NCBI GenBank assembly: GCA_037310415.1
Contig: CP147780.1
Span: 1,440,001 to 1,504,000, forward strand
Origin: Candidatus Atabeyarchaeum deiterrae
GTDB taxonomy: Archaea > Asgardarchaeota > Atabeyarchaeia > Atabeyarchaeales > Atabeyarchaeaceae
Reading direction: 5' to 3'
DNA: 64,000 bases
Part shown: piece by piece, positions 5,137 through 59,939 of the stretch
How the letters are laid out: every line of letters begins with the position of its first letter
How positions within the stretch are numbered: the stretch's first letter is position 1
Notes under the pieces: model-generated
What the model was told of the DNA's origin: nothing
What the model saw: the letters and a program-made list of their open reading frames with translations, nothing else
The model's database searches: none
Made by a program: the position numbers and the translations under genes

Positions 5137-5166
5137 GACATGTTAGCTAGCCAAGACCTTCCCTCT

Positions 5167-6966
5167 TCATTTTTCTGATTCTGGTTCGTTTTTCACATTC
5201 TGGTCTTGCGTGGGTTCAGGTACTCCATTTGAGTTCCATCCCCTCAGCTGATAGTATTCTTTGACCATCTGTTCAAACCGATGTTCGTCGACAGTTTTTC
5301 CTTTGCTTGCACCCTCAGGGAGCGGTTGGTTGAAGAATCTCTTTGGGAGAGTGTCGTCTGCGGTCGTGATTCCTTCTCTAACGTTGAACAGCCTCGTTAG
5401 AGTTATGATATTGTTCCCTATTTCCTTGAGCCTCTCCTCAGCTAAGCTCTCTCCAGTCAATGCTTTCAACAGGCTCGGCATCCTATCCCAAGGTACTATG
5501 TCTCGTATGAATCTGCAGATGATCAGGCTGTCGAATATCGCATAGCGGTTTTCAAGATCGACTACGTACTGCGCTTTTCCATCATATGCGAATCGATCGA
5601 TTACACCTCGTAACTCTGGAACCTGTACGGTTGAACGTAAGTGACATGCACCCCGCGATGAAACAGCATAACCCAATCCCATCCCGATAACTCCGCGTGG
5701 ATCATATCCAGGCAATTCAAGTCCTTTAACAGTAATGTCCACTTCAGGTAACCGAAGCTTCCTAGATGCTCGCTTGACCCCTTCGGCTAGAATGTCTCCT
5801 GCTCCTTCCCGTTTCGTGATCATCTTAAGCAGCTTGATTACTTTCTCCGCATCTCCGTACTCCATGTTCAGCCCAGTCTTCAGCTTTCCAGTTCTCTCAG
5901 CTTCGATAGCCATAGCCGCAACATTCCCACTTGTAATCGTGTCTATTCCAGCCCTATCACAATAGTCGTTGATCGCCATTATCGACTCAATCTCGCCGAT
6001 ATCGCACAGTCCTCCGAATGCATAAACCGTTTCGTATTCAGGCCCTTCGACTTTAATCCCCTTGTACTTTCCTTCCTTTGCTTCGCAGAGTTTTCCACAT
6101 GCTATCGGGCAGTTCCAGCAAGCTCTGGAACCAATTAGGACTTTGTCCTTCATAGCTGTGCTGTTTATATTCTCTATGTGAGTTGTTGTTCCCTCACTCC
6201 AATATCTGACTGGTAAGACTCCTGCTTCATTTACCAAGTCAAGGACTGCGAGTGTACCATACTCCTTGTAAGTCACGCCGGTCGACCTGTTTTCCCTTAT
6301 GAGTTTGAGACTCTCATTCACAACTTCTTTGAAGAGCCCTTCGTCATGAACCTCGGGTTCCTTGTCTCCTTGGAAAGCTACTGCCTTCAAGTTCTTTGAT
6401 CCCATTACGGCTCCTGCGCCAGTTCTACCGGCGCTTCTCCAGTAATCATTCTCTATTACTGCGAAGCGAACATGGTTCTCCCCTGCAGGGCCTATGCATA
6501 AAATGCCAAGATTCTTCTGCCCCTCATCCTTCCTGATGATGTCATGTGTAGCGAACGTGTCCTGTCTCCACAAGTGATCCGCATTTCTAAATTCCACGTG
6601 ACCCTCGGTAATGACGAGGTAAGTTGGGTTACTCGCTTTTCCTTGAATTATGAAGATTTCGTGACCTGTGCCTCTCATTCTGTGCGCTACATGCCCACCC
6701 GAGTAGCTTTCGCCGAAGATATTGGTGAGCGGAGACTTGAAGAAGACCCCGTAACGATTTGCGGTAGGGAACCTTGTGCCTGTTGCGGGGCCGACTGCAA
6801 ATACCAGTTTATTCATTGGTGAGAGTGGCTCGACTTCTGAATTGACCTCGTTGAGGAGAAACCGCGCTCCCAGGCCTTTGCCACCGATCAGAGTCTTTTC
6901 CCAATCTTCTTTTATGACTTCACTTGCGAACTCTTTCGTACCAAGATCAAGCCTCAATGCTTTCAA
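5167..6966 (-). CDS. aor: Aldehyde:ferredoxin oxidoreductase (W/Mo AOR family)
   Basis: IGGKGLG, KSPLT, GRTGAGAVMGSKNLKA, CWNCPIAC, EGPEYET, YDPRG and RGACH motifs. Confidence 0.95.
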   Translation of the reverse strand: MKALRLDLGTKEFASEVIKEDWEKTLIGGKGLGARFLLNEVNSEVEPLSPMNKLVFAVGPATGTRFPTANRYGVFFKSPLTNIFGESYSGGHVAHRMRGTGHEIFIIQGKASNPTYLVITEGHVEFRNADHLWRQDTFATHDIIRKDEGQKNLGILCIGPAGENHVRFAVIENDYWRSAGRTGAGAVMGSKNLKAVAFQGDKEPEVHDEGLFKEVVNESLKLIRENRSTGVTYKEYGTLAVLDLVNEAGVLPVRYWSEGTTTHIENINSTAMKDKVLIGSRACWNCPIACGKLCEAKEGKYKGIKVEGPEYETVYAFGGLCDIGEIESIMAINDYCDRAGIDTITSGNVAAMAIEAERTGKLKTGLNMEYGDAEKVIKLLKMITKREGAGDILAEGVKRASRKLRLPEVDITVKGLELPGYDPRGVIGMGLGYAVSSRGACHLRSTVQVPELRGVIDRFAYDGKAQYVVDLENRYAIFDSLIICRFIRDIVPWDRMPSLLKALTGESLAEERLKEIGNNIITLTRLFNVREGITTADDTLPKRFFNQPLPEGASKGKTVDEHRFEQMVKEYYQLRGWNSNGVPEPTQDQNVKNEPESEK

Positions 6967-7001
6967 CTATGCTCACTCTCTTACCGACGTTCACAGTCCT
7001 C

Positions 7002-7015
7002 AATTGATATCAGTT
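7002..7015. promoter_or_regulatory. Near-palindromic putative operator upstream of aor
   Basis: AATTGATATCAGTT (one mismatched pair) about 35 bp upstream of the aor start, downstream of a CTTAAG TATA-like box at about 7031. Confidence 0.3.
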
Positions 7016-7253
7016 AATTCTATTGCTCCTCTTAAGTTACTGGTGCTTCAAGACTACTGTAAAATGAATGGCAGATAGGCGCAAGATTACACCGTTTTCT
7101 TGGGTGGGAGTGAAAGCCATATCACGAATTGGGTGTGTTGGAGACTATTGACTTCAAGGAGTTATATCAGTGGTTTACCACTCCAAAGCGAGGAATTCCC
7201 TAGACTCAATGAAGAGAGAGTTCCACAAACTCATTCGAACTACTTCTATCATG

Positions 7254-7296
7254 AAAAAAAGAGGTTCTTAGGGAAGAGGTCGTGTCCCTAGAACTC
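7254..7296 (-). terminator. Hairpin plus T7 terminator after thiolase
   Basis: Minus strand GAGTTCTAGGGA...TCCCTAAGAACCTC followed by TTTTTTT, directly after the stop codon. Confidence 0.6.
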
Positions 7297-7300
7297 TGTT

Positions 7301-8500
7301 TTACTTTTCTCTTTCGATTATGGTTGCAATTCCTTGGCCCATTCCTACACAGAGGGTTGCTAGACCATATTTGCCGTTTATTCTTTCCAAGTGGTTGAGC
7401 TGGGTCGTGATGAGTCTTGCACCTGAGCATCCTAGTGGGTGTCCGAGTGCTATGGCCCCGCCACAGGGGTTGTATCTCTTGTCGTTCAGTAGATTCTCAA
7501 ACTTTATGCCCCATTCCATCCCTGTTGCTATGCAGACCGATGCGAATGCCTCGTTAACTTCAAGCGCATCCATGTCCTTTATTGTCAGACCCGCGCGTTT
7601 CAGGGCTTTGGCCGAAGATGGTGCTGGCCCAGTCAAAGCTATTACGGGATCCACTCCAACTACCGCCATGGCCTTTATTGTTGCCCTGGACTTCAATCCA
7701 AGTTCGTCAGCCTTCTCGCGAGAAGCTAGTAACAGGGCACAAGCCTGGTCATTAATGCTGGACGAATTGCCTGCAGTCACCTTTCCGCTTGGTGGCTTAA
7801 ACGCTGGAGGAAGCTTGGCGAGTTTCTCGAGTGAGGTTTCTGTTGGAACTCTCCTGGGTCCCTCGTCCTTGGCTGCAGTCTTTACTGTTCCGTCTGCTTG
7901 CTTGACATCCGGAACTGGTACGATCTCGTTGTTGAAATAGCCTGCATCCTGTGCAGCTACCGCCTTCTGGTGACTCCATAGTGCGAATTTGTCCATTTGC
8001 TCTCTTGGGATCTTGTATTTCTCTCCAACTGCTTCGCCTGCTAGTCCCATGTTGGTTATGGGATATTTCTTGTATACTTTCGCTCCTGCTAGCGAATTGA
8101 CGACTCCGTCGGCCACGCCCATTGCATACTTTGACATGTTCTCGACTCCGCCGCCGACAGCGAGATCTGCGTTTCCCGTCATTATCTCTGACGCTGCGAA
8201 TTGTACTCCTGTCATTCCTGAAGCGCAGAACCTGTTTAGTGTGACTCCAGCCACACTAATGGGGTATCCTGCTTCGAGAAGGGCTATCCTAGCCAGGTTT
8301 CCGGCTTGATCTCCGAACTGCGTGTTGCAGCCGATCACAACATCTTCTATTTGGCTTGCATCTACTTTTGTTCTGTCAACGAGAGCTTTGAGGCACACTG
8401 CTAGCATGTCATCAGAACGTGCCATGCTCAGTTGCCCATTTCTCTTGCCTGTTGGGGTGCGGACGGCATCGACAATCACAACTTCGCGAAGTTCAGTCAT
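7301..8500 (-). CDS. Thiolase (acetyl-CoA C-acyltransferase)
   Basis: NRFCASG, NEAFA, GHPLG and CVGMGQG motifs. Confidence 0.97.
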   Translation of the reverse strand: MTELREVVIVDAVRTPTGKRNGQLSMARSDDMLAVCLKALVDRTKVDASQIEDVVIGCNTQFGDQAGNLARIALLEAGYPISVAGVTLNRFCASGMTGVQFAASEIMTGNADLAVGGGVENMSKYAMGVADGVVNSLAGAKVYKKYPITNMGLAGEAVGEKYKIPREQMDKFALWSHQKAVAAQDAGYFNNEIVPVPDVKQADGTVKTAAKDEGPRRVPTETSLEKLAKLPPAFKPPSGKVTAGNSSSINDQACALLLASREKADELGLKSRATIKAMAVVGVDPVIALTGPAPSSAKALKRAGLTIKDMDALEVNEAFASVCIATGMEWGIKFENLLNDKRYNPCGGAIALGHPLGCSGARLITTQLNHLERINGKYGLATLCVGMGQGIATIIEREK

Positions 8501-12309: not shown

Positions 12310-12810
12310 TTAACTGCTGGTTCTACCTTCCGATGTCAGTAGTTTGCTTTCGACTTCTGTTGCAGATTCGATGTCGCCGCTCTTCTTGTACAATTCTGCT
12401 GCCAGCGTCAGGGCCTCTTTTGCTTCTTCCTCAAGGTTGAGCTCATGAAAACTCAATCCCAACCAGTGCCAAGCCTTTGCCAGTCTGGGATGAACTTCGA
12501 TGACTTTCTTGAAGGAATCTATTGCCCCCCGATAATCCCTTGAATTGAATTTCAAGCGCCCCATATCCATCCAGAGATTCAAGTCATTAGGATCTAGCCT
12601 GACGGCCACTTTTAGTGCCCTGAGTCCCCTATTCAGGTCGCCCTTAACCATAAAGGCTGAGCCGAGGTTCTTCCATGCCTTCGCGAATTTCGGATCAATT
12701 TCCAGGGCTTTCAGGTAACACTTGATCTCCTCATCAATATTCCCCTTAATGCCGTGCTCAACCCCCCTCGTATACCAATCCTTTGCTGCCAAAGCCCAAT
12801 CCCTCGACAC
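12310..12810 (-). CDS. Tetratricopeptide-repeat protein
   Basis: Repeated TPR consensus (YLKALEIDPKFAKAWKNLG; FKKVIEVHPRLAKAWHWLG). Confidence 0.9.
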   Translation of the reverse strand: MSRDWALAAKDWYTRGVEHGIKGNIDEEIKCYLKALEIDPKFAKAWKNLGSAFMVKGDLNRGLRALKVAVRLDPNDLNLWMDMGRLKFNSRDYRGAIDSFKKVIEVHPRLAKAWHWLGLSFHELNLEEEAKEALTLAAELYKKSGDIESATEVESKLLTSEGRTSS

Positions 12811-12937
12811 AATTTCTTCTAGTGTTGAAGCTGCAACGAACTGCCAGGCACTACCTCTTTTTCAAGCCCTCTAAAACCATTCTAAGACATTGGGAAAACA
12901 TCTTTATATAATATACCCTACGCAGAGAAAACGCATT

Positions 12938-13788
12938 TCAAGTCAACCTCAATGGCTCTTGATCTGCTTTTAGCAAGAAGGTTCGAGTCAAGTTCTCAGT
13001 TGAGAACTGACCATCTGTGTAATTCTTGTAAGTGCCTCTTATTCCCATTCTATTGAATTCTGCCTCTTTCCCGAAAACCTCATTAACTATTTGAGTAACG
13101 CTCGATCCTTGTTCGCTCAGTTTCAGTATTCTTCTGCCCAGTTCTTCTCGTATTGATATCGAACGATCAAGAACGCTCGAAGCATCAAAGATGGGATCAT
13201 TCACTCCTGGGAACATCACACGCGGAGAGAATTCCCTAATCTTTTTGAGCGAGGATATTGCTTGCCACTGGTTCTCCTCCAGACTCGCTCCGACAGGCTT
13301 GATGGTAACATAGAGGTCACCAACGAAAACCCAGCCCTCGCTACCTCTACCAAGGCGATGTGATCTCTGGTATGACCTGGCACGTAAACAACAAGGAACT
13401 CATGATTCTCAGTTTCAATAACGTCGGGAACGGGGGAAGGCTCAGACGGCTCGGGAATCCCCCAAGCAAAGACCTCAAACGAGGGAAGATCAGGTGACAC
13501 CCTCAACAGGGGAATCGCAAGCGGATGGGCGAAGATTGGAACGTTGCGAGTTGACTGAAGCAGGTGATCTCCTCCAACGTGGTCCTCATGGTGATGAGTG
13601 TTCACAACTTTAGTCAGCTTCTTCTCTTTTAGTACGTTTGCGATTTCCTTCTTCGTGTAATCGCACCCAGCATCAACTAGGAGGTCGTCGACGTGAAACG
13701 CTGAAACCCAATAGATGGGAGAGTCACCGATGGTGTTACTCATTTTTATTTGCGTGATAGAATCCTCGAAGCGATTTGTTTGGATCAA
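12938..13788 (-). pseudogene. MBL-fold metallo-hydrolase split by a single frameshift near 13345
   Basis: THHHEDHVGG and PGHTRDH in the first frame; the expected EGWVFVGDLY...RVMFPG continuation lies in the -1 frame and runs into the 12938-13219 ORF. Confidence 0.8.
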
Positions 13789-24682: not shown

Positions 24683-25435
24683 CTACTCGACCAAGAACTT
24701 GCCTTCTTGGATAGCGTAATTGAATTCCCTGGTGGAGAATTTTCTTCCAACCATCTTTTTGATCTGGAGCACTGAACGCCAGTCCCTGTAGTACCGCTCT
24801 TTTCTCAACTCGATTACACCGTCGACTATGTGTTCGAGGCCGGCAACAAATTGGCGAGAATGTGCCTTCTTATGGAGTGTAAGAAGAACAATCCCCCCGA
24901 ACTTCTTCTGCGCAATAACTTGGCTGCGAACAAATGCAAACGCACCCTTCTCATCGGCAGAACTGAGAATGATCGTCGAGAAGCTATCAACTACTCCCCG
25001 AAACTTGTTAGGCGATTCTATCCGCTCTGCGTAGTCCTTGACGCTGCTCCCTATCTCCTTCAAATCGGAAATATCAAGGATCGCGGACAACGATTTTTCC
25101 GATCCAGGCTCATCCACCCCAAACGCATTCATGAAGGTTAGCTTCCCACCATTCTCAAATCCGGTAACATCAATTCCCTGGGAAGACAGCAAGGTTCTGA
25201 TGGTTGACGAAGGAAAATCAGTGTTAAGGAAGAACACATTTTCACTACCCAACAACCCACCTGCAACGAATTGAGAAACCATCACGTCTGAACTCAACCC
25301 GGTATCCTCTTCCAGTATTAGGACATAACCCCGAGGGACACCACCCTCCATCGCTTCATCAAGAACAGCCAAACCAAACTCTGCGCTCAATTTGGGAAGC
25401 CTCCTTGCCACCCTATACTTCACATAATCACTCAT
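24683..25435 (-). CDS. KaiC/RAD55-like RecA-superfamily domain protein with degenerate Walker A
   Basis: LDEAMEGGVPRG, VVDSFS, LEHIVDGVIEL and LQIKKM; the P-loop reads EEDTGLSSD. Confidence 0.85.
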   Translation of the reverse strand: MSDYVKYRVARRLPKLSAEFGLAVLDEAMEGGVPRGYVLILEEDTGLSSDVMVSQFVAGGLLGSENVFFLNTDFPSSTIRTLLSSQGIDVTGFENGGKLTFMNAFGVDEPGSEKSLSAILDISDLKEIGSSVKDYAERIESPNKFRGVVDSFSTIILSSADEKGAFAFVRSQVIAQKKFGGIVLLTLHKKAHSRQFVAGLEHIVDGVIELRKERYYRDWRSVLQIKKMVGRKFSTREFNYAIQEGKFLVE

Positions 25436-25685
25436 GAGATTCTACTGAATCAAATATAGACTGCGAACACTACTTCCCCGACTTGGCGACTTTCCCCTAG
25501 GAACCGAAAGGGATTCACCAGCGTACTACGTAATATGGGTTGTCCAGTTATTTATTCCCTATGTTCTCAAGCCTATTCAATTTATCGACCAAAACACACT
25601 TAATCCAAGTCCAACTTAGAGAAAGAAGCAAGCACATGGAACATCCACGCAGGCTAGACTGACTGTCTCGGAAGAGTGAATCACT

Positions 25686-26072
25686 TTGAACTGCGATCGT
25701 TGTGGCAAATGCTGCGTGAAAACCTCAATGCAGCTGTCAGTTCAAGACATCAAGCGGCTTGAGAGACTCGGCTACAATAGAAAAGAGTTCACTATTATGA
25801 AAAAGGGATTCCGTTCCCTCAGAAATCTGAACGACGTTTGCTTTTTCTTCGACCCGGAATCCAAACACTGCAAGGTATACGCCAATAGACCTGAAGGGTG
25901 CAGATTTTACCCAATAGTTTACTCCCTCAGTGACAAGAAACCTATCATTGACAACGAGGTCTGCCGCAATACTTCTACGATCACGATAAGTGAGTTGGAA
26001 AGAGCAAGTCCAGATCTAACCAGACTGATAAAAAGGATCATTGAGGAATCTCGAAGAAGGGACGAGAAGTAG
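25686..26072 (+). CDS. YkgJ-family cysteine cluster protein
   Basis: CDRCGKCC...CFFFD...CKVYANRPEGCRFYP. Confidence 0.9.
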   Translation: MNCDRCGKCCVKTSMQLSVQDIKRLERLGYNRKEFTIMKKGFRSLRNLNDVCFFFDPESKHCKVYANRPEGCRFYPIVYSLSDKKPIIDNEVCRNTSTITISELERASPDLTRLIKRIIEESRRRDEK

Positions 26073-26562
26073 GAGATTGTCTGTCGTCGGGGTGAGTATC
26101 TTGTCACTTGAAACTAAAGCTGCCAAACATCTATTGGAAGGATACAATTGCGCTGAATCAGTCTTGCTCACGTTTCTCGAAGATTGGAGCCAATACTTCA
26201 GAATCGGCGTGACGCCTGCTGCCGCCACAGCATTCGGAGGCGGAATGGGCAGAATGGGACACACGTGTGGTGCTCTATCTGGCGCCCTTATGGTAATCGG
26301 ACTTGCCGTATCAAGAACAGAAGCAAAAGACGATGAAGGAAAAAAAGAAGCATATAAACTTGCTCAGGAACTCTTCAAGCGCTTTGAGCATAGATGGGGC
26401 GCGCTGGACTGCAGAGAGCTAACTCAATGCGACCTATCCACCGAGGAAGGATTCAGTAGATACAAAGAGCTGAAGATCCACGAAACGAAATGCAGTGAGA
26501 TAGTGAGAGGAACCACGAAAATCTTGACTAGCATTATCAAGCAGACCAAGAAGGATCCCTGA
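26041..26562 (+). CDS. C_GCAxxG_C_C family putative redox protein
   Basis: YNCAESV, FGGGMG, TCGALSGA, CREL and C-terminal Cys; start probably about 26101. Confidence 0.9.
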   Translation: MRNLEEGTRSRRLSVVGVSILSLETKAAKHLLEGYNCAESVLLTFLEDWSQYFRIGVTPAAATAFGGGMGRMGHTCGALSGALMVIGLAVSRTEAKDDEGKKEAYKLAQELFKRFEHRWGALDCRELTQCDLSTEEGFSRYKELKIHETKCSEIVRGTTKILTSIIKQTKKDP

Positions 26563-26603
26563 CATGACTTCTTTTGAGCCCTCAGTTGACACGGTCACGG
26601 TTC

Positions 26604-27893
26604 TTAATGTATTGTCATTTTCCAACCCTCGGGAATGCGACGACCAAACGTGATTTCCTCTGCACCAAGGAAAGTTCCCAAGTCTCGAATCGCACCAGCT
26701 ACAGCTTCGCCTGTCTCCGCTGTCATTGGTGCATCTCGTTCCGCATAAATGGCATTGACTGACAACCGCTTTCGTTCCCGATCCATTCTAGGATCGATAC
26801 GACCGATCAACTGATCACCATGCACAATCGGCATGACATAGCAACCATATCTTCGTTTGGCCTTTGGCAGATAGATTTCCAAGCTGAACTCGAAGTTGAA
26901 AACACGTTCCGTTCTCCTTCGCTCATAAATTAAATTGTCGAAAGGAGAGAGTAACGTAGTTCTTGGTCCCCAATTGCCAGAGGACAACTTGTCAACTAGG
27001 GGCAAATCATTCTTGTGCACATACCATTCGCCGAGCCAGATCCTGCCAGAGTCAGAGTCACGGATCTGAACTCGCTCAATAAGACCCTCCAACTCGAGTT
27101 CAAGCAGTATCTTGGGCAAGCCAGGGTAACAATGCCGAATGTAGTATCCTTCGATATCCTTAGCTGTAGCCACACCGAGCGCACGCAAGGATCTCTGCGC
27201 CGCGCGATACACCATATCATGCCAGGATAGGCGATCGCGTGGTGTCGACTCTGGCAGCCATCGTTCCGCCAGATCCCACATTTTCCTTCTGCCTGAACGT
27301 CCTGCAACTACGACCTTACCTTGAGCAGAAAGAAAAGTAAGCATCATGTCGACATTTCTACCAGATGTCCACCCAGAAGAGCGCCAAGGCTTGACAGACA
27401 CGTCATCAAAATCCTCCAAAGCCAAAGGACCTCTGCGGCGCAACTCTCCGAGAACATGCCTATGCAACGCATTGTTTGCCTTTATCCACCCACGTACACG
27501 ACGAGCCCAAGCCGAATCACCTTTCCCATAGTTCCGCTTCATTGTGCTGAAAACCGGGTAGTCTTCAGTGAGAACGATCGAGGTAGCGTGTGCCCAGTCT
27601 TCGAAAAGTGCATGCTCCTTCCAGAGAAGGCTGTCCAGGAGAGAAATGTCATAGTTGCCTACACGACTCCATAATACAAGAAGGTGGCTAGGTGCAACGA
27701 CGCTCATTGGATCAATCTGCAAACATCCGATGTTCTTAATAACGTCAATAATGCCGTTCGCATCAGCTGATGGACGAGGATCAGCCAATCTCTGGCAGGT
27801 GATTGCTAGACGCCGAGCCAATGATGGTGTGAGTTCATATGCCGAAGCCATGCGAAACATTGAACTCTCAATGCATATAAAGTTCGTATCCAT
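26604..27893 (-). CDS. ycaQ: YcaQ/AlkZ-like winged-helix DNA crosslink-repair glycosylase
   Basis: LQIDP, LWSR, LLSPFDNLI and EIYLPKAKRRYGCY motifs. Confidence 0.88.
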   Translation of the reverse strand: MDTNFICIESSMFRMASAYELTPSLARRLAITCQRLADPRPSADANGIIDVIKNIGCLQIDPMSVVAPSHLLVLWSRVGNYDISLLDSLLWKEHALFEDWAHATSIVLTEDYPVFSTMKRNYGKGDSAWARRVRGWIKANNALHRHVLGELRRRGPLALEDFDDVSVKPWRSSGWTSGRNVDMMLTFLSAQGKVVVAGRSGRRKMWDLAERWLPESTPRDRLSWHDMVYRAAQRSLRALGVATAKDIEGYYIRHCYPGLPKILLELELEGLIERVQIRDSDSGRIWLGEWYVHKNDLPLVDKLSSGNWGPRTTLLSPFDNLIYERRRTERVFNFEFSLEIYLPKAKRRYGCYVMPIVHGDQLIGRIDPRMDRERKRLSVNAIYAERDAPMTAETGEAVAGAIRDLGTFLGAEEITFGRRIPEGWKMTIH

Positions 27894-29582
27894 TTAGGCG
27901 CGTGCAATCACAAAGTGCTGCCTCTTCACAGGCATTTTCTCACGTCTGACTTCTTTGATTGCAGCCACGAGGACCGGCAGAACGACTCCTGCAATCAAGA
28001 GCATAATAAGAGAGAGAACTAGGTACGCAAGAGCAAGATCAGTTGATCCCTGAGGACCTGGACTAGGAGGACTGGGTGTTGTCCATCTAACTTCTATCGT
28101 GACTGACTGGTTGCTGTGCACAACGCGTGCTGTCAACATCTTGGTACCGTTGTCATAGCCCCAACTGGACATCCCGCTAGTGGTATTTGGAGCTCCTCTG
28201 TTGGCGCAGTAGACCTGAATCGTGCTAGTAGTTCCGTTAGGAGCCTTGACTACGATCGACAGATAGGTGTCGTTGAGAAATGGAGCATGAGTAATGCTTG
28301 CATTCCATGTTTGTAGATGCATGCCGTTCGGAAAACTCCAGTTCCTGAGCCCGTGATCTAGCCATATGTCATCGAAAGTCTGACCATTCAGATCCTTAGC
28401 TTCGAGGTACAATGTGTCGTTGGCGAAAAGCGTTGCCAACACGAAGTGATAGGTCTTGCTACCGTAAGCGCTGTACGGTTGGCTATAGTAGTCATGCAGG
28501 GGGGCTCCCCATCCTCCAGATGTAAGGTAGAGCGTCCCGTTCTTGTAGGAGGACACGACAGAGTTGTTGCTCATCGGTTTGGTTCGATGATAGTAGTGTG
28601 AATGCCCCTGAACAACAACATCCACATGGTACTTGCTGAAAATCGGCACCCAATACTGTTGTAGGTCTGTTGCATTCGAGTGTCCACCTGCGTAATAGAC
28701 GTTGCGATGAAACATTACGATTTTCCACATCGAGCTTGGAGTCGAAGAAAGCACACTTTCAACCCAATTAGCCTGATCGACTGCAATTTGAGATGGAGAG
28801 GCTTCGCTATTCATTACTATGATTCGCAGTTTCGAACCATAATCATAGTAATACCATTGTTCGTTCCCGGGCAAGGGAAACTGCTCATAGTAATTCGTTG
28901 AGTTCACTTCGTGGTTACCAAGGCATGGGATAACTGGAATCGTGAGTCCGTTTTGGTCTACCCAATTCGTCTGAACATCGGAAAACCAGACGTCCCATTG
29001 TGTCTGATTTGTGCCGTCATCGACCATGTCCCCGCAATGCAGCGCGAAAGAGGGGTTGAAGTGATTCATCGCCTGCGAAACCTGAGTGCGGACAGCTACG
29101 TTGGCTCTAGAATCCCCTCCAATTACGAATCTCAGAGTAGTGGCATAAGAGGATGATGTCCCAAAAGAACGTTCAGTGCTGTAGTTACCTGGTCCTCCAC
29201 AGATGAAGAAGTACACCGTGCTGGAAGTAAGACCCATGAGTTCAACGTCATGTATGTAGCCGGAAGCGCCTGCATAAGTATGGTGGATCCCTGTAGAATT
29301 GAACTCGTACAAAGATGGGATTCCTCCCCGTGCGACAATGTCGTAAAGGACAAGGTCGCCCGAGGAGGGAAATGTTGTCTGCCAAGTCACGGTTATCGTA
29401 GAAGTAGGATCTCCTGGATAGGTTAAGTGAATGCTTAATGGATCATCAGTGCCGGGGCCAAGAAGATGAGTCGTGACCTGTGTAATCGGGATATTGGAAG
29501 GGTGAAACGAGATGGAGACGAAAGAAATAACGGCAAGCAATGCAAGTGCAGCTATTCGACATTTCATCACCTGTAGCCTCAC
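27894..29582 (-). CDS. Secreted, membrane-anchored purple-acid-phosphatase-like metallophosphoesterase with FN3 domain
   Basis: Signal peptide, IHLT...TVTW, GDSR, GDMV, GNHE, GHSHYY and C-terminal TM. Confidence 0.9.
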   Translation of the reverse strand: MRLQVMKCRIAALALLAVISFVSISFHPSNIPITQVTTHLLGPGTDDPLSIHLTYPGDPTSTITVTWQTTFPSSGDLVLYDIVARGGIPSLYEFNSTGIHHTYAGASGYIHDVELMGLTSSTVYFFICGGPGNYSTERSFGTSSSYATTLRFVIGGDSRANVAVRTQVSQAMNHFNPSFALHCGDMVDDGTNQTQWDVWFSDVQTNWVDQNGLTIPVIPCLGNHEVNSTNYYEQFPLPGNEQWYYYDYGSKLRIIVMNSEASPSQIAVDQANWVESVLSSTPSSMWKIVMFHRNVYYAGGHSNATDLQQYWVPIFSKYHVDVVVQGHSHYYHRTKPMSNNSVVSSYKNGTLYLTSGGWGAPLHDYYSQPYSAYGSKTYHFVLATLFANDTLYLEAKDLNGQTFDDIWLDHGLRNWSFPNGMHLQTWNASITHAPFLNDTYLSIVVKAPNGTTSTIQVYCANRGAPNTTSGMSSWGYDNGTKMLTARVVHSNQSVTIEVRWTTPSPPSPGPQGSTDLALAYLVLSLIMLLIAGVVLPVLVAAIKEVRREKMPVKRQHFVIARA

Positions 29583-50518: not shown

Positions 50519-51115
50519 ATGGTCACGATCATGACAAACAAGAAGCTACCTCCAGATCAGCAGGAAGTAGATGGCATACTCCGGTGGAATATAGACCACC
50601 CTGGAATCATACCAGAGAACCCAAAGATAGACCTAGAAAAGTGGGTCTTGACTGTCGACGGAGAAATAGAGGGACCAGCAAAGCTAACCTGGCAGGAATT
50701 CGTAATGGTTCCCTCAAGCGAATCCAAGAGCGACTTCCACTGCGTAGAGGGGTGGAGTGTCATGGACTGCAAATGGCACGGAGTCAAATTCACAACGTTG
50801 GTGCAAATTGTGAAGCCTAAAAAAGGAGCAGAATCTGTCTTCTTCAAGTGCTCTGATGGGTACACCACGTCTTTAGATCTCAAGGATCTTCTCCGAGATA
50901 ATGTCATTCTAGCATACAAGCTCAATGGCGAGAATCTTGACGAGTCACTTGGCGGTCCGCTTCGACTAATAGTTCCAGATAAATACGCGTATAAGAGTGC
51001 GATGTGGATCGAGCGCATAACGTTCATGAAGAAGAAAGAGCTAGGATACTGGGAGAAACGAGGCTACAGCGACACTTCTGATGTTTGGAAAAATGACCGT
51101 CGCGCAAGATGGTAA
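50519..51115 (+). CDS. Molybdopterin-dependent oxidoreductase (sulfite-oxidase-like)
   Basis: DFHCVEGWS, DGYTTSL, GGPLRLIVP and GYWEKRGY. Confidence 0.9.
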   Translation: MVTIMTNKKLPPDQQEVDGILRWNIDHPGIIPENPKIDLEKWVLTVDGEIEGPAKLTWQEFVMVPSSESKSDFHCVEGWSVMDCKWHGVKFTTLVQIVKPKKGAESVFFKCSDGYTTSLDLKDLLRDNVILAYKLNGENLDESLGGPLRLIVPDKYAYKSAMWIERITFMKKKELGYWEKRGYSDTSDVWKNDRRARW

Positions 51116-52077: not shown

Positions 52078-55000
52078 GTGGTAAGTCGCGTGAACGAGAT
52101 CAGCTCCCCCGCAAACAGAGAAGATAAGCACTTCGATGGCGAGTACGCTGAGATGTGTGCGCTTTCCTTAGAGGATCTGTCAAAACAATTGAAAACCGAT
52201 CCCAACAAAGGACTTTCCGGCAAAGATGCGGAGGACAGACTTGGGGAATTCGGACCAAATGTGATTCCACGAGTTAAACCCAGCTTCTACAAGGTGTGGA
52301 TCGCGCCTTTCATGAATCTGCTCATAACCATATTCCTAGTAGTCAGCATCATCCTCTTGTTTTTTGCCATATTCATATTGCCTGAAGCCGGAGCGCGACT
52401 CTTCATATGGATCCCACTGATTGGCATTAACGCTGCTCTTGCAGTCGTACAGCAAGCAAGGGCACAAAGGAAACTTGAAGCTCTGCAAAAACTATCTGCT
52501 CCCAAATGCGAAGTCCTCCGAGACCATAAGATCGTGGAGATTCCGTCCGAGCAGGTGGTCCCGGGAGACATATTGAAACTGGAAAGGGGAGACAGGATTC
52601 CCGCCGATGCTCGGATAATCACTGCTTCCAGCCTTAGAGTGAACGAAGCAGCTCTCACTGGAGAATCTAACGAAGTAGAGAAGACTGAGGTCGACCTTCC
52701 CGTCGATGAAGGGGCGCCAATTCATGCTATCAAGAATATGGTGTTTCTGGGGACATATGTCACAGCGGGTCTTGCAAGAGCTTTGGTCATGAGAACTGGA
52801 AAAGAAACTCAGCTCGGAAGAATATCAACGACCTTAGGAGAGCTCGACACAGGCGAAATACCCCTGCGTCAAAAAGTTAACAGGCTCGCGAAATATCTTG
52901 GAGTTGCGGTGATTTTCTATCTGGTTTTCTCACTTGCATATAACTTGATTGTTCTTCAATTGGCAAATGGCATCTTTGCTGGAGGCGTTTTCAACACCAA
53001 GCTGGTCTCGGAGACGATAGTGAGAAGCTTGCAGACAGCGATGACTATAATGCCAATCAATATTCCACTATTGACAACAATTATCCTGCTTACGGGAATT
53101 CTTGCCATGGTTCAGCACCATGTTCTCATACGCGACCTGAGCGCTGTTGAAAGCCTTGGTCGAATCTCAGTTGTTTGCTCAGACAAAACTGGGACAATAA
53201 CAAAAAACGAAATGACGGCAAGATGGATATGCCTTCCATCTGCCGATCTGAAGAATACCACATATGGTGTAACAGGCGTAGGCAACCAACCCTCTGGCGA
53301 GGTTATGACGGTCGATCCTTCATCAGATTTGCGAGAGGTCATAAGAAGGAGACCTGAGGAACTCGGCTCTAGTAAAGTCCAGATTGAGCCGGAGACGTCT
53401 CTGGAATGCGTTCTCGCGTCAGGCATGCTTGACAACGAAAGTAGCATCATCAAGGAGAAGGTCAAAATCTCTGACAGAGAGCAGGAAGTCTACAAGGCAT
53501 CAGGCAACGCCACTGATGTCTCACTGCTGGTTCTTTTTCAGAAATCGGGACTTGACGAGAAAGTGTACAAGTCCCGATTCAAGGAACAAGTCAACTACCC
53601 GTTCGAATCAAAGCTCAAGCGCACAACAAGAGTCTTCAAAGATAGTAAGAACGGTAAGTATGTGATATTCTCAAAAGGAGCCACGGAAGTCCTCTTACCT
53701 CGTTGCAGCCGCATAGCAGAAAAGAAAATCACTGAAGCTGGACTTTTGAGAGACAAGGATAAGACCCTTGTCGACAAGAAAGTCGATCTCTTCGCTTCAT
53801 CTGGCTACAGGGTGATCTCATTTGCTTTCAAATATCTAAACGAATTACCAACAACGTACAAGACAGATAGAGAGCAAATTGAGAAGGATTTGACTTATCT
53901 CGGCTTCGTCGCTATCATGGACCCGCCAAGGGAAGGCGTTCTTGAATCTGTCACCGAAGCTAAGAATGCAGGAATCAAACCGATCATGATAACGGGTGAC
54001 AGCGTAGAAACGGCGAGAAGCATCGCACAAGAAGTGGGCATAGCTGACAAAACGGATCTTGCAGTAGAAGGACGTGAAATCGAATCTTTGTCGGACAAGC
54101 AATTCCTGAAGACATCCGTGTTTGCTAGAGTTTCACCAGAAAACAAGATGACAATAGTCGAACGCTACAAAGATCAGAAACGCGTCGTCGCAATGACAGG
54201 TGACGGCGTGAATGACGCACTAGCAATCTCTAGGGCGGATGTTGGCATCGCCACTGGAATCACAGGAACAGACGTTGCAAAACAGGCTGCAGGTATGATA
54301 ATCACTGATGACTCGTTCACATCAATCATTTCAGGAATCAGGGAAGGTAGAGGCCTCTTTGAGAAAATCCGGGCAATCATCTTCTTCTTCATTGCCGTCA
54401 ACTTTGCCGAGGCTCTCATCTACTTCGGTTCAGCCTTAATCCCCGGATTCTACTTGCTAAATCAATGGCAGCAAATATACATCTTCGCCACTGTCCACTC
54501 CATACCTCCCTTCGCAATCATAATCAGCTTGCTTGACAGAGATGTCATGAAAGAAAAGCCGCGGGACGGAGAAGGGATCTTCAACAAACGGTTGGCATTT
54601 GGTTTGGTTCTCTTCTCAATAGCGCTTGCATGCGTGTTCTACCTTGTCTATTTTAGTACACTGAATGGCGTAATACCTTTGTTTGCAGAAAACCAGATGG
54701 GCTACATTCCAAGATTTGGTGGTCCTGCTAGCTTGGCGAGCCCACTGAACTGGGATCAAGCGAAAGCCCGCACAATGCTGCATTCGGTCGCAATTGTTGC
54801 AGAGGCAATGTTGGTAATCTCTTTGATTCGGATTAACAAACCATTTCACAAAGCTTTGAGGGGAAAAGATCGCGTGGCTTTGCTGGTCCTGATACTATCA
54901 GTTCCGATAGCGCATGTGATCCTAATGTACATCCCCGCAATCCAGCTATTTCTGTTGAACGCGGTCGGGATTAATCTCGAGATTATTCAGCTTACTTGGA

Positions 55001-55095
55001 TAGACTGGCTCATTGTCATGGGTTTCGCATTTTTCCCGATCTTGCTTTTTGAGCTGTACAAGGGACTGGTTCGAAAGTTGGGCAGGTTCTTCTAG
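52078..55095 (+). CDS. P-type ATPase, P2-like scaffold with atypical membrane motifs
   Basis: TGES, DKTGT, KGATE, MITGD and TGDGVND; TM4 reads MPINIPL. Confidence 0.92.
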   Translation: MVSRVNEISSPANREDKHFDGEYAEMCALSLEDLSKQLKTDPNKGLSGKDAEDRLGEFGPNVIPRVKPSFYKVWIAPFMNLLITIFLVVSIILLFFAIFILPEAGARLFIWIPLIGINAALAVVQQARAQRKLEALQKLSAPKCEVLRDHKIVEIPSEQVVPGDILKLERGDRIPADARIITASSLRVNEAALTGESNEVEKTEVDLPVDEGAPIHAIKNMVFLGTYVTAGLARALVMRTGKETQLGRISTTLGELDTGEIPLRQKVNRLAKYLGVAVIFYLVFSLAYNLIVLQLANGIFAGGVFNTKLVSETIVRSLQTAMTIMPINIPLLTTIILLTGILAMVQHHVLIRDLSAVESLGRISVVCSDKTGTITKNEMTARWICLPSADLKNTTYGVTGVGNQPSGEVMTVDPSSDLREVIRRRPEELGSSKVQIEPETSLECVLASGMLDNESSIIKEKVKISDREQEVYKASGNATDVSLLVLFQKSGLDEKVYKSRFKEQVNYPFESKLKRTTRVFKDSKNGKYVIFSKGATEVLLPRCSRIAEKKITEAGLLRDKDKTLVDKKVDLFASSGYRVISFAFKYLNELPTTYKTDREQIEKDLTYLGFVAIMDPPREGVLESVTEAKNAGIKPIMITGDSVETARSIAQEVGIADKTDLAVEGREIESLSDKQFLKTSVFARVSPENKMTIVERYKDQKRVVAMTGDGVNDALAISRADVGIATGITGTDVAKQAAGMIITDDSFTSIISGIREGRGLFEKIRAIIFFFIAVNFAEALIYFGSALIPGFYLLNQWQQIYIFATVHSIPPFAIIISLLDRDVMKEKPRDGEGIFNKRLAFGLVLFSIALACVFYLVYFSTLNGVIPLFAENQMGYIPRFGGPASLASPLNWDQAKARTMLHSVAIVAEAMLVISLIRINKPFHKALRGKDRVALLVLILSVPIAHVILMYIPAIQLFLLNAVGINLEIIQLTWIDWLIVMGFAFFPILLFELYKGLVRKLGRFF

Positions 55096-55146: not shown

Positions 55147-56025
55147 CTACCTAGCATTAATTTCAGAGGGGATTCCCGACTCGCAGGGCACGCCTGTTTG
55201 GCATAGTCCACAGCCATAGCCCTTGAAGCCGTAATGAGTTCGAACGTACCCCCACATAGAATCAACGTACCGGGAGCATTTCATTTTGTCGTGACCCGCT
55301 TTGGAGATTGCCCCGACGGGGCACCGGTCGATGCATTTGCCACATATGCCCTTGGAGTAGAAGAGGCAGTATGCGTGGTGACTTGTATATGGTCTCTTGG
55401 ATGGTGGAACAGCAATCTTGGCAATTACCGAGCCGCAGCGCATTGCCTTGCCTACTGGCGTGATTAGACCGTCGCAGAGACCAAAGGTTCCAAGACCGGC
55501 AGTATATGCAGCGTGACGTTCTGACCAATTTGACGTGATGAAGTACTTCCCGAAGGCTCTGGTTCCCCAGAGAGACGAGAGCGATGGCGCCACCGCCTCG
55601 TGCCCTTCCTTCGTGAAAGCGGCAACAACATGTCGCCGAAGTGCATCATTGAATTCCTCGCCGAACATCCGAGCTCTGGCCCACCTCTCAGTCGGGAATC
55701 TCGTCTCTTTTCTATGTTCGTTCTTAGTGGCTTCGGTGTGAGGCAGGATCCAGCTCACTACTGCAAGTTGATCCGCCGTGGTCTCAACTTTCGGAAAGGT
55801 TCTTGAGAACATCTCTAAGGGCGAGAAGTAGAATTCTCCGATATCCTTCTTGTAGAACTGGTAGAGAGGGTCGACCCCACTTGATAGAGCCACTAGGGGC
55901 TCAGCCCATGCTCTTTCGTTGTCCTTGTTCTTTAAGGAATTATCAGGGGATTCTCTGACAAACTCTTTCACAACTGACTCAATCCATTTGGCCGAGCTCA
56001 TGCCTTTGTTGGTCAATTCTGGCAC
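55147..56025 (-). CDS. Epoxyqueuosine-reductase-like 4Fe-4S protein
   Basis: WSERHAAY.AGLGTFG, CGKCIDRCP and CGLCQTGVPC. Confidence 0.8.
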   Translation of the reverse strand: MPELTNKGMSSAKWIESVVKEFVRESPDNSLKNKDNERAWAEPLVALSSGVDPLYQFYKKDIGEFYFSPLEMFSRTFPKVETTADQLAVVSWILPHTEATKNEHRKETRFPTERWARARMFGEEFNDALRRHVVAAFTKEGHEAVAPSLSSLWGTRAFGKYFITSNWSERHAAYTAGLGTFGLCDGLITPVGKAMRCGSVIAKIAVPPSKRPYTSHHAYCLFYSKGICGKCIDRCPVGAISKAGHDKMKCSRYVDSMWGYVRTHYGFKGYGCGLCQTGVPCESGIPSEINAR

Positions 56026-56137: not shown

Positions 56138-57379
56138 TTGAGTGTTGAGTCTGGCCTCTATCATTTTCCCGATGGATTCCTTTGGGGTTCTGCTATTACA
56201 GACTATGAGGCCTTTGGAGGGGCCGAAAGTGATCTACCAATCCGTTGGACATCTAGGCATGTCGATCATTACGCCGAAGACTTCGACTTGATTAGAAACA
56301 AGTTGCATCACAGTGCCTTCAGAACAGCTATCGAATGGGCTAGGATCGAACCCAAAGAGGGTAGGATCAACAAGGACGCCATTAGCTTCTACCACAAGTA
56401 TTTTGATTCTCTCAAGAAAACTGGTATGAAGGCATTCGTAGCGCTCCAGGATTCTACCAACCCTATGTGGGTTCAGGAGCAGGGAGGATGGCTTTCTAAG
56501 AAAACCGTTGAGAGGTTTTCTCGGTACGTCGAACTTGTCTGCAGAGAGTTTGGTAGCTATATCGACTACTGCCTCGTCGTAAATGATCCCGCTGGGTCTG
56601 CGCTCAAATCATATTTCGTCGGGGCAAGTCCTGACAGAGGGTTACCTCCATACCACCATGATTTCGCGGAAGCAATGATCTGCCTCGGAAACTTTACTGA
56701 TGCTATTCTTGAGGGCAGTGAGGAACTTCACAGTGTCACTAAGGCAAAGGTGGGATCTGGCAACTACTATGGAGTTTTCGTGCCCCTTGATCCAAAGAAC
56801 AAAAGACACCAAGACTCTGTCTACCTAGCGAGTCAAGCCTTGATCTATCAAGTTCCAGATGCTATTAGGAGAAAGGTTGACTTCATGGGCATCGAATACT
56901 ACTCGAGGCTTGTTATGGCCGAAGACAACAAAGTTGTCAGAACAGAGGTCTATCCTCAAGGAATTAGAGAATCGGCAAGAGACTTCTATAAGCGCTACAG
57001 ATTGCCATTGGCAGTAGTTGATAGTGGATTTCCAACACGGGACGATGATGAGAAGATCAAGTTCCTCCTGGAACACTTGAGAGAGCTTCACAATGCGATC
57101 AATGAGGACAAGGTCGATGTCTTTGGCTACAACTGGTGGTGCACCCTCCACAGTTATTCATGGGGATACGGGTTCAAACCCTTCTTTGCCCTCATAGATG
57201 TTGAAGGCGAGGAAGAAGACGTTGGCGGATACGAAGACCTAGTCGGTTCGTTCAAAAGGAGGATAACGAAGGCTGGGGAATACTATGGTTCAATCTGCAG
57301 AAACAACGGTTTTTCTCAAAAAGACTATGAGAAGTACCACGCGATGAAAAAACCTTTAAAGCAATGGCTAGAATTCTGA
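56138..57379 (+). CDS. Glycoside hydrolase family 1-fold protein with non-canonical active site
   Basis: FPDGFLWGSA, FRTAIEWARIEP, VYPQG and DVFGY.WW; catalytic motifs read NDP and VDSG. Confidence 0.88.
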   Translation: MSVESGLYHFPDGFLWGSAITDYEAFGGAESDLPIRWTSRHVDHYAEDFDLIRNKLHHSAFRTAIEWARIEPKEGRINKDAISFYHKYFDSLKKTGMKAFVALQDSTNPMWVQEQGGWLSKKTVERFSRYVELVCREFGSYIDYCLVVNDPAGSALKSYFVGASPDRGLPPYHHDFAEAMICLGNFTDAILEGSEELHSVTKAKVGSGNYYGVFVPLDPKNKRHQDSVYLASQALIYQVPDAIRRKVDFMGIEYYSRLVMAEDNKVVRTEVYPQGIRESARDFYKRYRLPLAVVDSGFPTRDDDEKIKFLLEHLRELHNAINEDKVDVFGYNWWCTLHSYSWGYGFKPFFALIDVEGEEEDVGGYEDLVGSFKRRITKAGEYYGSICRNNGFSQKDYEKYHAMKKPLKQWLEF

Positions 57380-58466: not shown

Positions 58467-58784
58467 TTGCGTCTGGGAAAGCAATGCCTCATGTCTTCTA
58501 CCTGATTGTGGTCGCTGGCATGACGCTCAGCGACACTCTTGCTTCTTGCTTTGAAGCTCTAGGTCCGAGGCAGTTCTCATGAATGAGATGCCGCCATAAT
58601 CATATTGTGCGTTGCGAACACCCTCTTTACCTTGTGATGATCTAAGTGAGCCTGTCTTGGCAGACTTGATTGTTTCCCACCATCATCCAAAGGTAATTAT
58701 CGTGGAATTTCTTCTATACGCGGACACTGGAAAAATGGCTGCTAGAAGTTGGCAAAACAAAAGATAGCTAGAGGCGCAGTGAAA

Positions 58785-59939
58785 ATGCAGTATCGAAGAT
58801 TCGGAAGGCTGGAATGGAAAGTTTCAGCCTTGGGATTCGGGTGCATGCGCTTGCCGACAAATGACAAGATTGGCACTAGTGGAAACGTGGACGAGAAAGA
58901 AGCGATACGAATGATACGGTACGCAATTGATCAGGGAGTCAACTACGTCGACACCGCCTACCCGTATCACGACGGGAATGGTGAGATTATCGTGGGAAAG
59001 GCATTGAAAGACGGATACAGGGAAAAAGTCAAACTCGCTACAAAGTCTCCCATCTGGACAATTCGTAAGGCGGAGGATTTCGATAACTACCTAAGCGAAC
59101 AATTGAAGAAACTGCAAACGGATCACATTGACTTCTATCTTTTCCATGGTTTAGAAAAGCAGAGGTGGAACACCGTTCTGAATCTCAACTTACTGCAGAA
59201 GGCGGAAACTGCCATCAAGGATGGCAGAATCAGAAACGTAGGATTCTCGTTTCACGACAAATATGAAACTTTCAAAGAAATAATAGACGGGTATAGCGGA
59301 TGGACTCTATGCCAAATACAGTACAACTACATGGACGCAGAAAACCAGGCAGGAACGAAGGGGCTGAGATACGCAGCTTCAAGAGGATTAGCCGTTGTGG
59401 TAATGGAGCCCATACGGGGTGGACGATTATCGAATCCGCCAACGTCAGTTCAAGGGATATTTGACAGTTACGAGAGAAGACGCTCTCCTTCCGATTGGGC
59501 TCTGCAGTGGGTGTGGAATCAACCAGAAGTATCAGTTGCGCTGAGCGGAATGAGTAAAATGGGACAGGTTGAAGAAAACATTCACTCAGCAAACATATCA
59601 AGCGTGAATTCTCTCGGAGCAAGAGATCTACAGATTGTCGAACGTGTTCAGAGAAAATACAGAGAAAGAACCGCAGTTCCATGCACAAAATGCGGTTATT
59701 GCATGCCCTGTCCAAACGGAGTAAACATACCAGGAAACTTCGAATTATACAACGACGGCATCATATATGACGATCTGAACATCGCTCGAATGAGATATAC
59801 AAGATTCTTCAGTCAAAAAGATCGCGCGAGTGCTTGCATTCAATGCAAAACATGTGAGGAGAAATGCCCTCAGAAAATACCAGTTAGCGAACTGATGCCC
59901 AAAGTGCATGCACTCCTCGGAGAGGTCAAATCAGACTGA
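58785..59939 (+). CDS. Aldo/keto reductase with C-terminal 4Fe-4S domain
   Basis: SALGFGCMRLP, YVDTAYPY, LATK, GFSFH, CTKCGYCMPCP and CIQCKTCEEKCPQ. Confidence 0.93.
   Translation: MQYRRFGRLEWKVSALGFGCMRLPTNDKIGTSGNVDEKEAIRMIRYAIDQGVNYVDTAYPYHDGNGEIIVGKALKDGYREKVKLATKSPIWTIRKAEDFDNYLSEQLKKLQTDHIDFYLFHGLEKQRWNTVLNLNLLQKAETAIKDGRIRNVGFSFHDKYETFKEIIDGYSGWTLCQIQYNYMDAENQAGTKGLRYAASRGLAVVVMEPIRGGRLSNPPTSVQGIFDSYERRRSPSDWALQWVWNQPEVSVALSGMSKMGQVEENIHSANISSVNSLGARDLQIVERVQRKYRERTAVPCTKCGYCMPCPNGVNIPGNFELYNDGIIYDDLNIARMRYTRFFSQKDRASACIQCKTCEEKCPQKIPVSELMPKVHALLGEVKSD

Follow-up and report, generated by a model that had tools for sequence, protein, structure and literature searches.

What does a calcium-pump-like ATPase transport when the glutamate at the break of its fourth transmembrane (TM) helix has become an isoleucine? 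The question is raised by a gene in a 64,000-nucleotide stretch of the genome of the archaeon Candidatus Atabeyarchaeum deiterrae (contig CP147780.1, positions 1,440,001 to 1,504,000 of the forward strand; the whole stretch is referred to below as the window), which encodes a P-type ATPase that reads PINIP in TM4. An initial annotation had described this protein, here called the PINIP pump, as an active enzyme that has lost the canonical cation site and possibly transports a lipid or another organic substrate; in an Asgard host, it was thought to be a possible convergent or transitional form relevant to the origin of flippases. Our analysis suggests that the PINIP pump probably transports an inorganic cation other than Ca2+ and is not a lipid flippase. 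From its intact motifs, we infer a functional P-type ATPase of a distinct clade that would derive from P2 (Ca-pump-like) ancestors.

The gene is a single long open reading frame (positions 52078 to 55095, forward strand) with a stop-free translation of 1005 amino acids. Re-translation of the DNA at the coordinates of each motif recovered the three cytoplasmic catalytic motifs named in the initial annotation, TGES, DKTGT and GDGVND, and confirmed PINIP at exactly the position first given and, in TM5, the sequence NFAE, which retains the Asn and Glu residues that had been noted (Table 1). Membership in the P-type superfamily was indicated by the score against model TIGR01494 (253.6 bits, cut-off 62.3) and by the DKTGT, TGES, TGD and GDGxND motifs. 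The architecture is that of a P2 pump, with 10 TM helices in the structural model and five Pfam domains, Cation_ATPase_N, E1-E2_ATPase, Cation_ATPase, Hydrolase and Cation_ATPase_C, all five of which scored above their cut-offs.

Within the P2 pumps, the P2A Ca2+-ATPases are the nearest characterized proteins. The best sequence matches in the PDB were LMCA1 (6zhf/6zhh), SPCA1 (8iwt/7yag) and SERCA1/2, at 375, 343 and 291 bits, respectively, and the PINIP pump shares with P2A pumps the five-domain Pfam architecture, the number of TM helices (10) and three residues of SERCA site I, namely the Asn and Glu of TM5 and the Glu of TM8. However, TM4 reads PINIP rather than PEGLP, TM6 carries F..VH rather than N..TD, and TM1 has an aromatic residue in place of Leu. 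The scores against the P2A equivalog models were about half of each cut-off (TIGR01522 [PMR1], 415.5 versus 798.3; TIGR01116 [SERCA], 384.7 versus 703.4). An AlphaFold2 model built from a 41-sequence alignment (predicted local distance difference test score [pLDDT], 83.4; predicted template modeling score, 0.76) contained ten TM helices, with breaks in TM4 at residues 325 to 327 and in TM6 at residues 805 to 809, where these helices are usually broken. The best Foldseek matches to the model were SPCA1 (8iwt), SERCA2b, SERCA1a, Na,K-ATPase and H,K-ATPase, the SPCA1 and SERCA chains being in E2 or E2P states, and no P4 or P5 chain was present among the 50 best matches. The ESM Atlas returned generic cation-ATPase clusters only.

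We then compared the membrane site with that of SERCA, after which site residues are numbered. In SERCA, site II is formed by E309, N796 and D800 together with TM4 carbonyls, and site I is formed by N768, E771, T799, D800 and E908. In a HMMER alignment to Listeria LMCA1 (6zhf), the Glu of PEAL was matched by Ile327 of the PINIP pump, and the Asn and Asp of TM6 were matched by Phe803 and His807, respectively. The ligands of site II are therefore replaced by Ile327 (E309), Phe803 (N796) and His807 (D800), with further hydrophobic residues around them (Ile329, Leu331, Leu332 and the aromatic residue at TM1 position 86), and the claim that the canonical cation site had been lost was borne out for site II. 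In site I, Asn775, Glu778 and Glu909 are retained, D800 has become His807, the T799 position (Val806 here) is Val, Ala or Thr in the family, and a new Asn (Asn328) stands at G310. The single-ion Ca pumps LMCA1 and SPCA1 show the reverse pattern, in that the TM5 Glu is absent (in SPCA1 the TM5 Asn as well) but site II, which is erased in the PINIP pump, is kept. The polar Asn/Asn/Glu/His/Glu constellation predicted for the membrane core is typical of an ion site.

Loss of the canonical residues might reflect decay of a single gene. We therefore aligned 238 full-length relatives, of which 145 lack Glu in the E309 column and 93 have it (PEGLP pumps). In the group without Glu, the E309 position is Ile in 128 of the 145 sequences and the next position is Asn in 131. 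The equivalent of Asn775 is Asn in 132, Glu778, equivalent to E771, is invariant (145 of 145), and His807 is His in 137; the position of the TM8 Glu909 is occupied by Glu (118 sequences), Ile (19) or Gln (8). In the 93 PEGLP-type relatives, the corresponding residues are Gly, Asn, Glu, Asn, Thr and Asp (G310, N768, E771, N796, T799 and D800). TM1 position 86, Phe in the PINIP pump, is Tyr in 87% of the family and Leu in 92 of the 93 PEGLP pumps, and the residues next to PINIP (Ile329, Leu331 and Leu332) are also family specific. Within the membrane, the positions that carry a signature of this clade only cluster in TM1 (position 86), TM4 (five positions) and TM6 (the His), with a few others at helix ends.

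Database searches gave the same picture. The 120 best matches nearly all carry MPINIPLL, N..E and H-[SAT]-xPP, and a search of representatives at 50% identity revealed a sharp border at about 460 bits. Above it, all full-length proteins have P-[IVFW]-[NS]-[ILF]-P in TM4 and nearly all have the TM6 His; below it, all proteins have PEGLP and NLVTD. Gln replaces the TM6 His in a PVSIP subclade, and one subclade of seven sequences switches N328S, N775S, H807Q and E909Q jointly, which fits a single ligand set with switched chemistry. TGES is present in nearly all relatives, and the catalytic motifs are invariant in 41 diverse clade members. Across members from Asgard, TACK and Dehalococcoidia, with identities as low as about 32%, the substituted residues are highly conserved. 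Since the replacement residues are themselves conserved in the 145 full-length relatives, decay or a pseudogene was rejected; PINIP and the TM6 His are shared traits, the close relatives lack PEGL, and lineage-specific decay, which the initial annotation had named as an outcome that would refute its reading, was not seen. The intact and conserved motifs also suggest that the earlier proposal of an active pump was sound.

The PINIP pump belongs to a clade recognizable by P-[IVFW]-[NS]-[ILF]-P in TM4, N..E in TM5, His at the D800 column of TM6, and monophyly. Phylogenies were inferred with IQ-TREE (LG+C20 posterior mean site frequency model, quick search) from 71 proteins, comprising 41 clade members, 20 PEGLP representatives and the genome's own P-type ATPases, with eukaryotic P4 and P5 sequences left out. 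The PINIP clade was monophyletic (Shimodaira-Hasegawa-like approximate likelihood ratio test support, 100; stem length, 0.42) and arose from an unresolved polytomy of PEGLP pumps, within or beside them. The genome's P3A pump, its three MgtA-like pumps and a paralogue with PEEIP in TM4 all fell outside the clade, a result with which a reduced tree of 29 rows concurred, and starred branches separate the clade from P3A, P3B and the PEEIP paralogue. When the PINIP clade and P3A were forced together (29 rows, LG+G4), the log likelihood dropped by 57.6 and an approximately unbiased (AU) test rejected the grouping (P = 0.004), which had been named after the first tree was seen. A shared origin of the PIxxP motif with P3A pumps was thereby rejected, and because the joint clade fails the AU test, the likeness of the two motifs appears to be convergent.

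The host genome is one contig of 2,756,679 bp and belongs to the same family as Promethearchaeati archaeon SRVP18_Atabeyarchaeia-1 (CP147779.1), so that the Asgard host on which the initial annotation had made its evolutionary proposal conditional is confirmed. With a presence threshold of E ≤ 1e-140, which separates the PINIP clade from ordinary P2 pumps, the 301 genomes from the host phylum included 210 with a PINIP-type pump (about 70%), and among the 90 high-quality genomes there were 72 (80%). Two copies are kept in many genomes and are usual in one large Asgard family (f9). Tandem duplicates were observed in two other Asgard genomes (G025:C86:1229-4132 and 4610-7492; G180:C13:22246-25104 and 25355-28294). 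The best matches span Njord-, Atabey-, Odin-, Heimdall-, Hod- and Thorarchaeia, Bathyarchaeia, Nitrososphaeria and Dehalogenimonas, and deep-branching variants with PFNFP and PLNLP came from Promethearchaeota and Helarchaeota. Outside Asgard, the named members are patchy (Bathyarchaeota/Bathyarchaeia, Nitrososphaeria, Methanomethylicus and Dehalogenimonas).

Eleven P-type ATPases are encoded by the host genome: three P1B pumps, one P3A pump, three MgtA-like pumps, a canonical Ca pump, a P2C-like pump, the PEEIP pump and the PINIP pump. The canonical Ca pump has both sites (PEALP, NVGE, NLVTD and the TM8 Glu), and the P2C-like pump reads MPEGLQ and IDLFID. When the P1B pumps are set aside, eight paralogues remain; the D800 column is Asp in seven of them and His only in the PINIP pump. 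A non-redundant role for the PINIP pump is suggested by the presence in the same genome of Ca, P3A, three MgtA-like and three P1B pumps.

Which cation is moved can be proposed more tentatively. We favor a divalent transition metal (Fe2+, Mn2+, Zn2+, Co2+ or Ni2+), at somewhat less than even confidence. Transition-metal sites of transporters, such as those of CDF and ZIP proteins and the TM6 His-Glu of P1B-4 pumps, typically pair a nitrogen donor from His with carboxylates and amides, and His is atypical as a ligand of Ca2+, Mg2+, Na+ or K+. The transition-metal assignment is suggested by this His nitrogen within a long-conserved set of several ligands and by the coordinated switch of ligands in one subclade. 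The pump would follow an ordinary cycle, in which Asp369 is phosphorylated and TGES catalyzes dephosphorylation. In each cycle, the predicted Asn/Asn/Glu/His(/Glu) pocket would bind one small inorganic cation other than Ca2+; the metal would be exported, and protons would be taken up in exchange by the Glu-His pair.

Several observations weigh against a transition metal. The TM8 Glu position is Ile in 19 of the 145 sequences, leaving a single carboxylate, rather little for a divalent cation, and three P1B heavy-metal pumps are already present in the genome. TM4 PIxxP and a lone invariant carboxylate flanked by Asn and a base are equally P3A-like. In a survey of 21 archaeal loci (±8 kb) and one Dehalogenimonas locus, no metal-binding domain, metallochaperone, metal regulator or metal riboswitch was found near the gene.

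An electrogenic proton pump, which we consider only slightly less likely than a transition-metal pump, would use the same pocket differently. Glu778 would be the proton acceptor and donor, hydrogen bonded to Asn328 and Asn775, and His807, as a built-in base or counter-charge, would drive the proton out in E2P. Such a mechanism would represent functional convergence on the P3A logic of Asp684, Asn106 and Arg655, and the PINIP pump and the P3A H+-ATPases (AHA2, Pma1 and MJ1226 type) possibly have in common one central carboxylate that can be protonated, with an Asn and a base close by. TM4 P-I-x-x-P also occurs in the genome's own P3A pump (PIALP), site II of the PINIP pump is packed with hydrophobic residues, and Glu778 is the sole invariant carboxylate, the TM8 Glu being dispensable in 27 of the 145 relatives. 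However, P3A pumps use an essential TM6 Asp as the proton carrier, where the PINIP pump has His; the PINIP pump is 200 amino acids longer, with a P2-type C-terminal domain; and the P3A model TIGR01647 matched it only in two pieces of about 164 and 160 bits, versus a cut-off of 615.5. The joint clade with P3A was rejected, as described above, and in the variant subclade the His is replaced by Gln rather than by Arg or Lys, with three further ligands changing along with it. In addition, the whole site I ligand set has been conserved for long, beyond the needs of a proton relay. P3A pumps scored above the family cut-off in 45 of the 301 Asgard genomes, some of which had up to three matches, and 39 of these 45 genomes, including the 2.76-Mb genome of the host, also carry a PINIP-type pump. 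Two ATP-costly pumps with the same job would be odd in one genome, and this co-occurrence is one reason why we favor a transition metal over protons.

If the retained site I ligands bound a hard cation (Na+, K+, Mg2+ or still Ca2+), the pump would have an ordinary P2 function with unusual ligands, and this seems improbable. P2A and P2C pumps are closest to the PINIP pump by every measure, the equivalents of N768, E771 and E908 are kept, and the public annotation of relatives reads "Ca2+-transporting ATPase," although these are automatic names only. On the other hand, E309, N796 and D800 are all lost, the pattern is opposite to that of LMCA1 and SPCA1, which keep site II and lose site I, and the scores lie far under every NCBIfam equivalog cut-off. 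The genome already has canonical Ca, three MgtA-like and P2C-like pumps, and His would be an unusual ligand. In view of the site residues, the automatic annotation of clade members as Ca2+-transporting ATPases is unlikely to be correct.

That leaves the lipid or organic substrate of the initial annotation, a flippase- or polyamine-like transporter possibly bearing on the origin of eukaryotic P4 pumps, which we now regard as very unlikely. P4 flippases have DGET in the A domain and Ile at the position of the P2 Glu (PISL). The PINIP pump shares the Ile with ATP8A1, Drs2 and Neo1, its site II is hydrophobic, its host is an Asgard archaeon and its family is widespread in Asgard. However, Ile in place of the TM4 Glu does not by itself mark a flippase, because P3A proton pumps have it too, as in the PIALP motif of the genome's own bona fide P3A pump. 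The PINIP pump has TGES rather than DGET, retains charged and polar ion ligands, including acidic residues and His, in its membrane core, and scored 117.2 bits against the P4 model TIGR01652 (cut-off 431.25). Neither PhoLip_ATPase_N nor PhoLip_ATPase_C was among its Pfam matches at E ≤ 0.01, and the predicted fold resembles those of SPCA1 and SERCA. P5 pumps are no closer, with PP(E/D/A)LP in TM4 versus MPINIP and 240.4 versus 618.25 bits for TIGR01657. No match to the P4 model was found at E ≤ 1e-60 in the 301 Asgard genomes, and no Cdc50 homologue was found in the host genome, both searches having been run without a positive control; these null results agree with the reported restriction of P4 pumps to eukaryotes (PMC10654040). 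Kinship with flippases was rejected on the basis of the hidden Markov model scores, the Pfam domains, the fold matches, and trees that held no eukaryotic P4 or P5 sequences. The clade roots in or beside prokaryotic PEGLP pumps, and the proposals of a lipid substrate and of a transitional form were not borne out; on present evidence, the PINIP clade has no bearing on the origin of flippases.

A related and similarly remote idea is that the clade is a new family in which a hydrophobic TM4/TM1/TM6 groove and the Glu-His pocket would accept a non-metal substrate (a lipid headgroup, a polyamine or another organic cation). If this were true, the family would set a precedent within Asgard, by convergence or by ancestry, for the giant-substrate P4 and P5 pumps of eukaryotes. 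It is most improbable that the protein transports nothing, as a decayed pump or a sensor or regulator merely cycling ATP: the canonical Ca2+ ligands are gone and no conserved partner genes lie nearby, but the conservation of the substituted residues to about 32% identity, the intact reading frame, a GC content equal to that of the flanking DNA and the many genomes with two copies argue otherwise.

This large offshoot of the calcium-pump family is apparently undescribed. The literature on the PINIP motif, the FUPA families and Asgard P-type ATPases yielded no description of the clade, to which a FUPA number in TCDB may possibly correspond. A 2023 review of the superfamily distinguishes families P1 to P6 and expects further prokaryotic families, none of the PINIP kind being named; P6, the mycobacterial CtpE type, is the only family added since P1 to P5; in its members, PEGL persists in TM4 and Ile takes the place of the TM6 Asp (PMC10654040). 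The PINIP pump resembles P6 in being a prokaryotic P2-like pump with the TM6 Asp replaced and is set apart from that published description by PINIP in TM4 and His in TM6. A survey of Asgard transporters lists nothing beyond a "putative Ca2+ ATPase (TC 3.A.3.2.21)," assigned to each of the five proteomes (PMC7997004). If its ion were identified, a textbook enzyme family would gain a new specificity class, and reconstructions of ion homeostasis in the closest prokaryotic relatives of eukaryotes would be corrected, a possible example being the Ca2+-ATPase orthologue reported in all Asgard proteomes (PMC7997004). The clade is also a natural experiment, in which sites I and II of a P2 pump have been separately erased and rebuilt.

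The features described above, together with neighboring genes and other P-type ATPases of the genome, are listed in Table 1. The true start of the PINIP pump is possibly the alternative GTG, which is used in the ESM Atlas record, or lies further downstream; residues 1 to 19 have pLDDT values below 50, and homologue alignments begin only at about residue 25.

Table 1. Coordinates of the PINIP pump gene, its motifs and site residues, neighboring genes and other P-type ATPases of the genome (window positions unless a contig is given)
Feature	Position	Strand	Remark
Whole gene, P-type ATPase, 10 predicted TM helices	52078-55095	+	GTG start; alternative GTG 52090
TM1 position 86, Phe, family-specific change alongside the TM4 changes	52333-52335	+	alignment
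TGES, A-domain dephosphorylation motif	52657-52668	+	re-translated at own coordinates
PINIP at TM4 helix break; Ile327 at SERCA E309, Asn328 at G310	53053-53067	+	re-translated; LMCA1 alignment
DKTGT with phosphorylated Asp369	53182-53196	+	re-translated
GDGVND, P-domain hinge motif	54199-54216	+	re-translated
NFAE in TM5; Asn775 = SERCA N768, Glu778 = E771	54400-54411	+	re-translated
QQIYIFATVHSIPP in TM6, contains TVHSIPP; Phe803 = N796, Val806 = T799, His807 = D800	54469-54510	+	re-translated
TM8 Glu909 at SERCA E908 position	54802-54804	+	alignment; aligned with TM8 Glu of the genome's PEALP pump
Bona fide P3A pump, TM4 PIALP	G000:C1:1180476-1182887	-	TIGR01647, 704.5 bits versus cut-off 615.5
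PEEIP pump, 811 amino acids	G000:C1:1757372-1759807	+	TM5 Lys (SVKVA), TM6 LELFMD
MgtA-like P-type ATPase, 805 amino acids	33876-36293	-	TM4 PELMP, TM5 SNFGN, TM6 NLLYD
Oxidored_molyb protein (YedY/MsrP-like)	50519-51115	+	close upstream of the pump
Open reading frame, 147 amino acids	51369-51812		no Pfam match
Weak 4Fe-4S protein	55147-56025	-	downstream
GH1-like glycosidase	56138-57379	+	downstream
Aldo/keto reductase fused to 4Fe-4S dicluster domain	58749-59939	+	downstream

In the 21 archaeal loci, no neighbor was common to different taxonomic families except an Oxidored_molyb protein, which was present at three loci, two of them in the same family; with 3 of 21 loci, the proximity may be due to chance. 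This YedY/MsrP-like protein of 190 to 198 amino acids lies close upstream of the pump in the window, where the reading frame of 147 amino acids stands between the two genes. Its counterparts are at 7362-7946 (+) of locus L118 and 12399-12971 (+) of locus L135; the gene is 55 bp upstream of the pump in Atabeyarchaeia-1 and less than 2 kb downstream in another Asgard family. The three downstream neighbors in the window are not conserved beside the pump in other genomes, and the Dehalogenimonas locus held two-component systems only. A riboswitch scan of nine homologous loci detected only a thiamine pyrophosphate riboswitch, unlinked to the pump. It lies on a Bathyarchaeota contig (L150, 5606-5714, minus strand; 61.8 bits versus a gathering threshold of 54.3), about 300 bp upstream of the pump homologue, and given its opposite orientation, the divergent gene is presumably the one under its control.

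Two further P-type ATPases of the genome deserve mention. The MgtA-like protein in the window is one of the three paralogues of this type. The PEEIP pump, which has a Lys in TM5, lies at the end of a very long branch (length, 2.1) between the MgtA-like and P2 pumps and is another unclassified pump.

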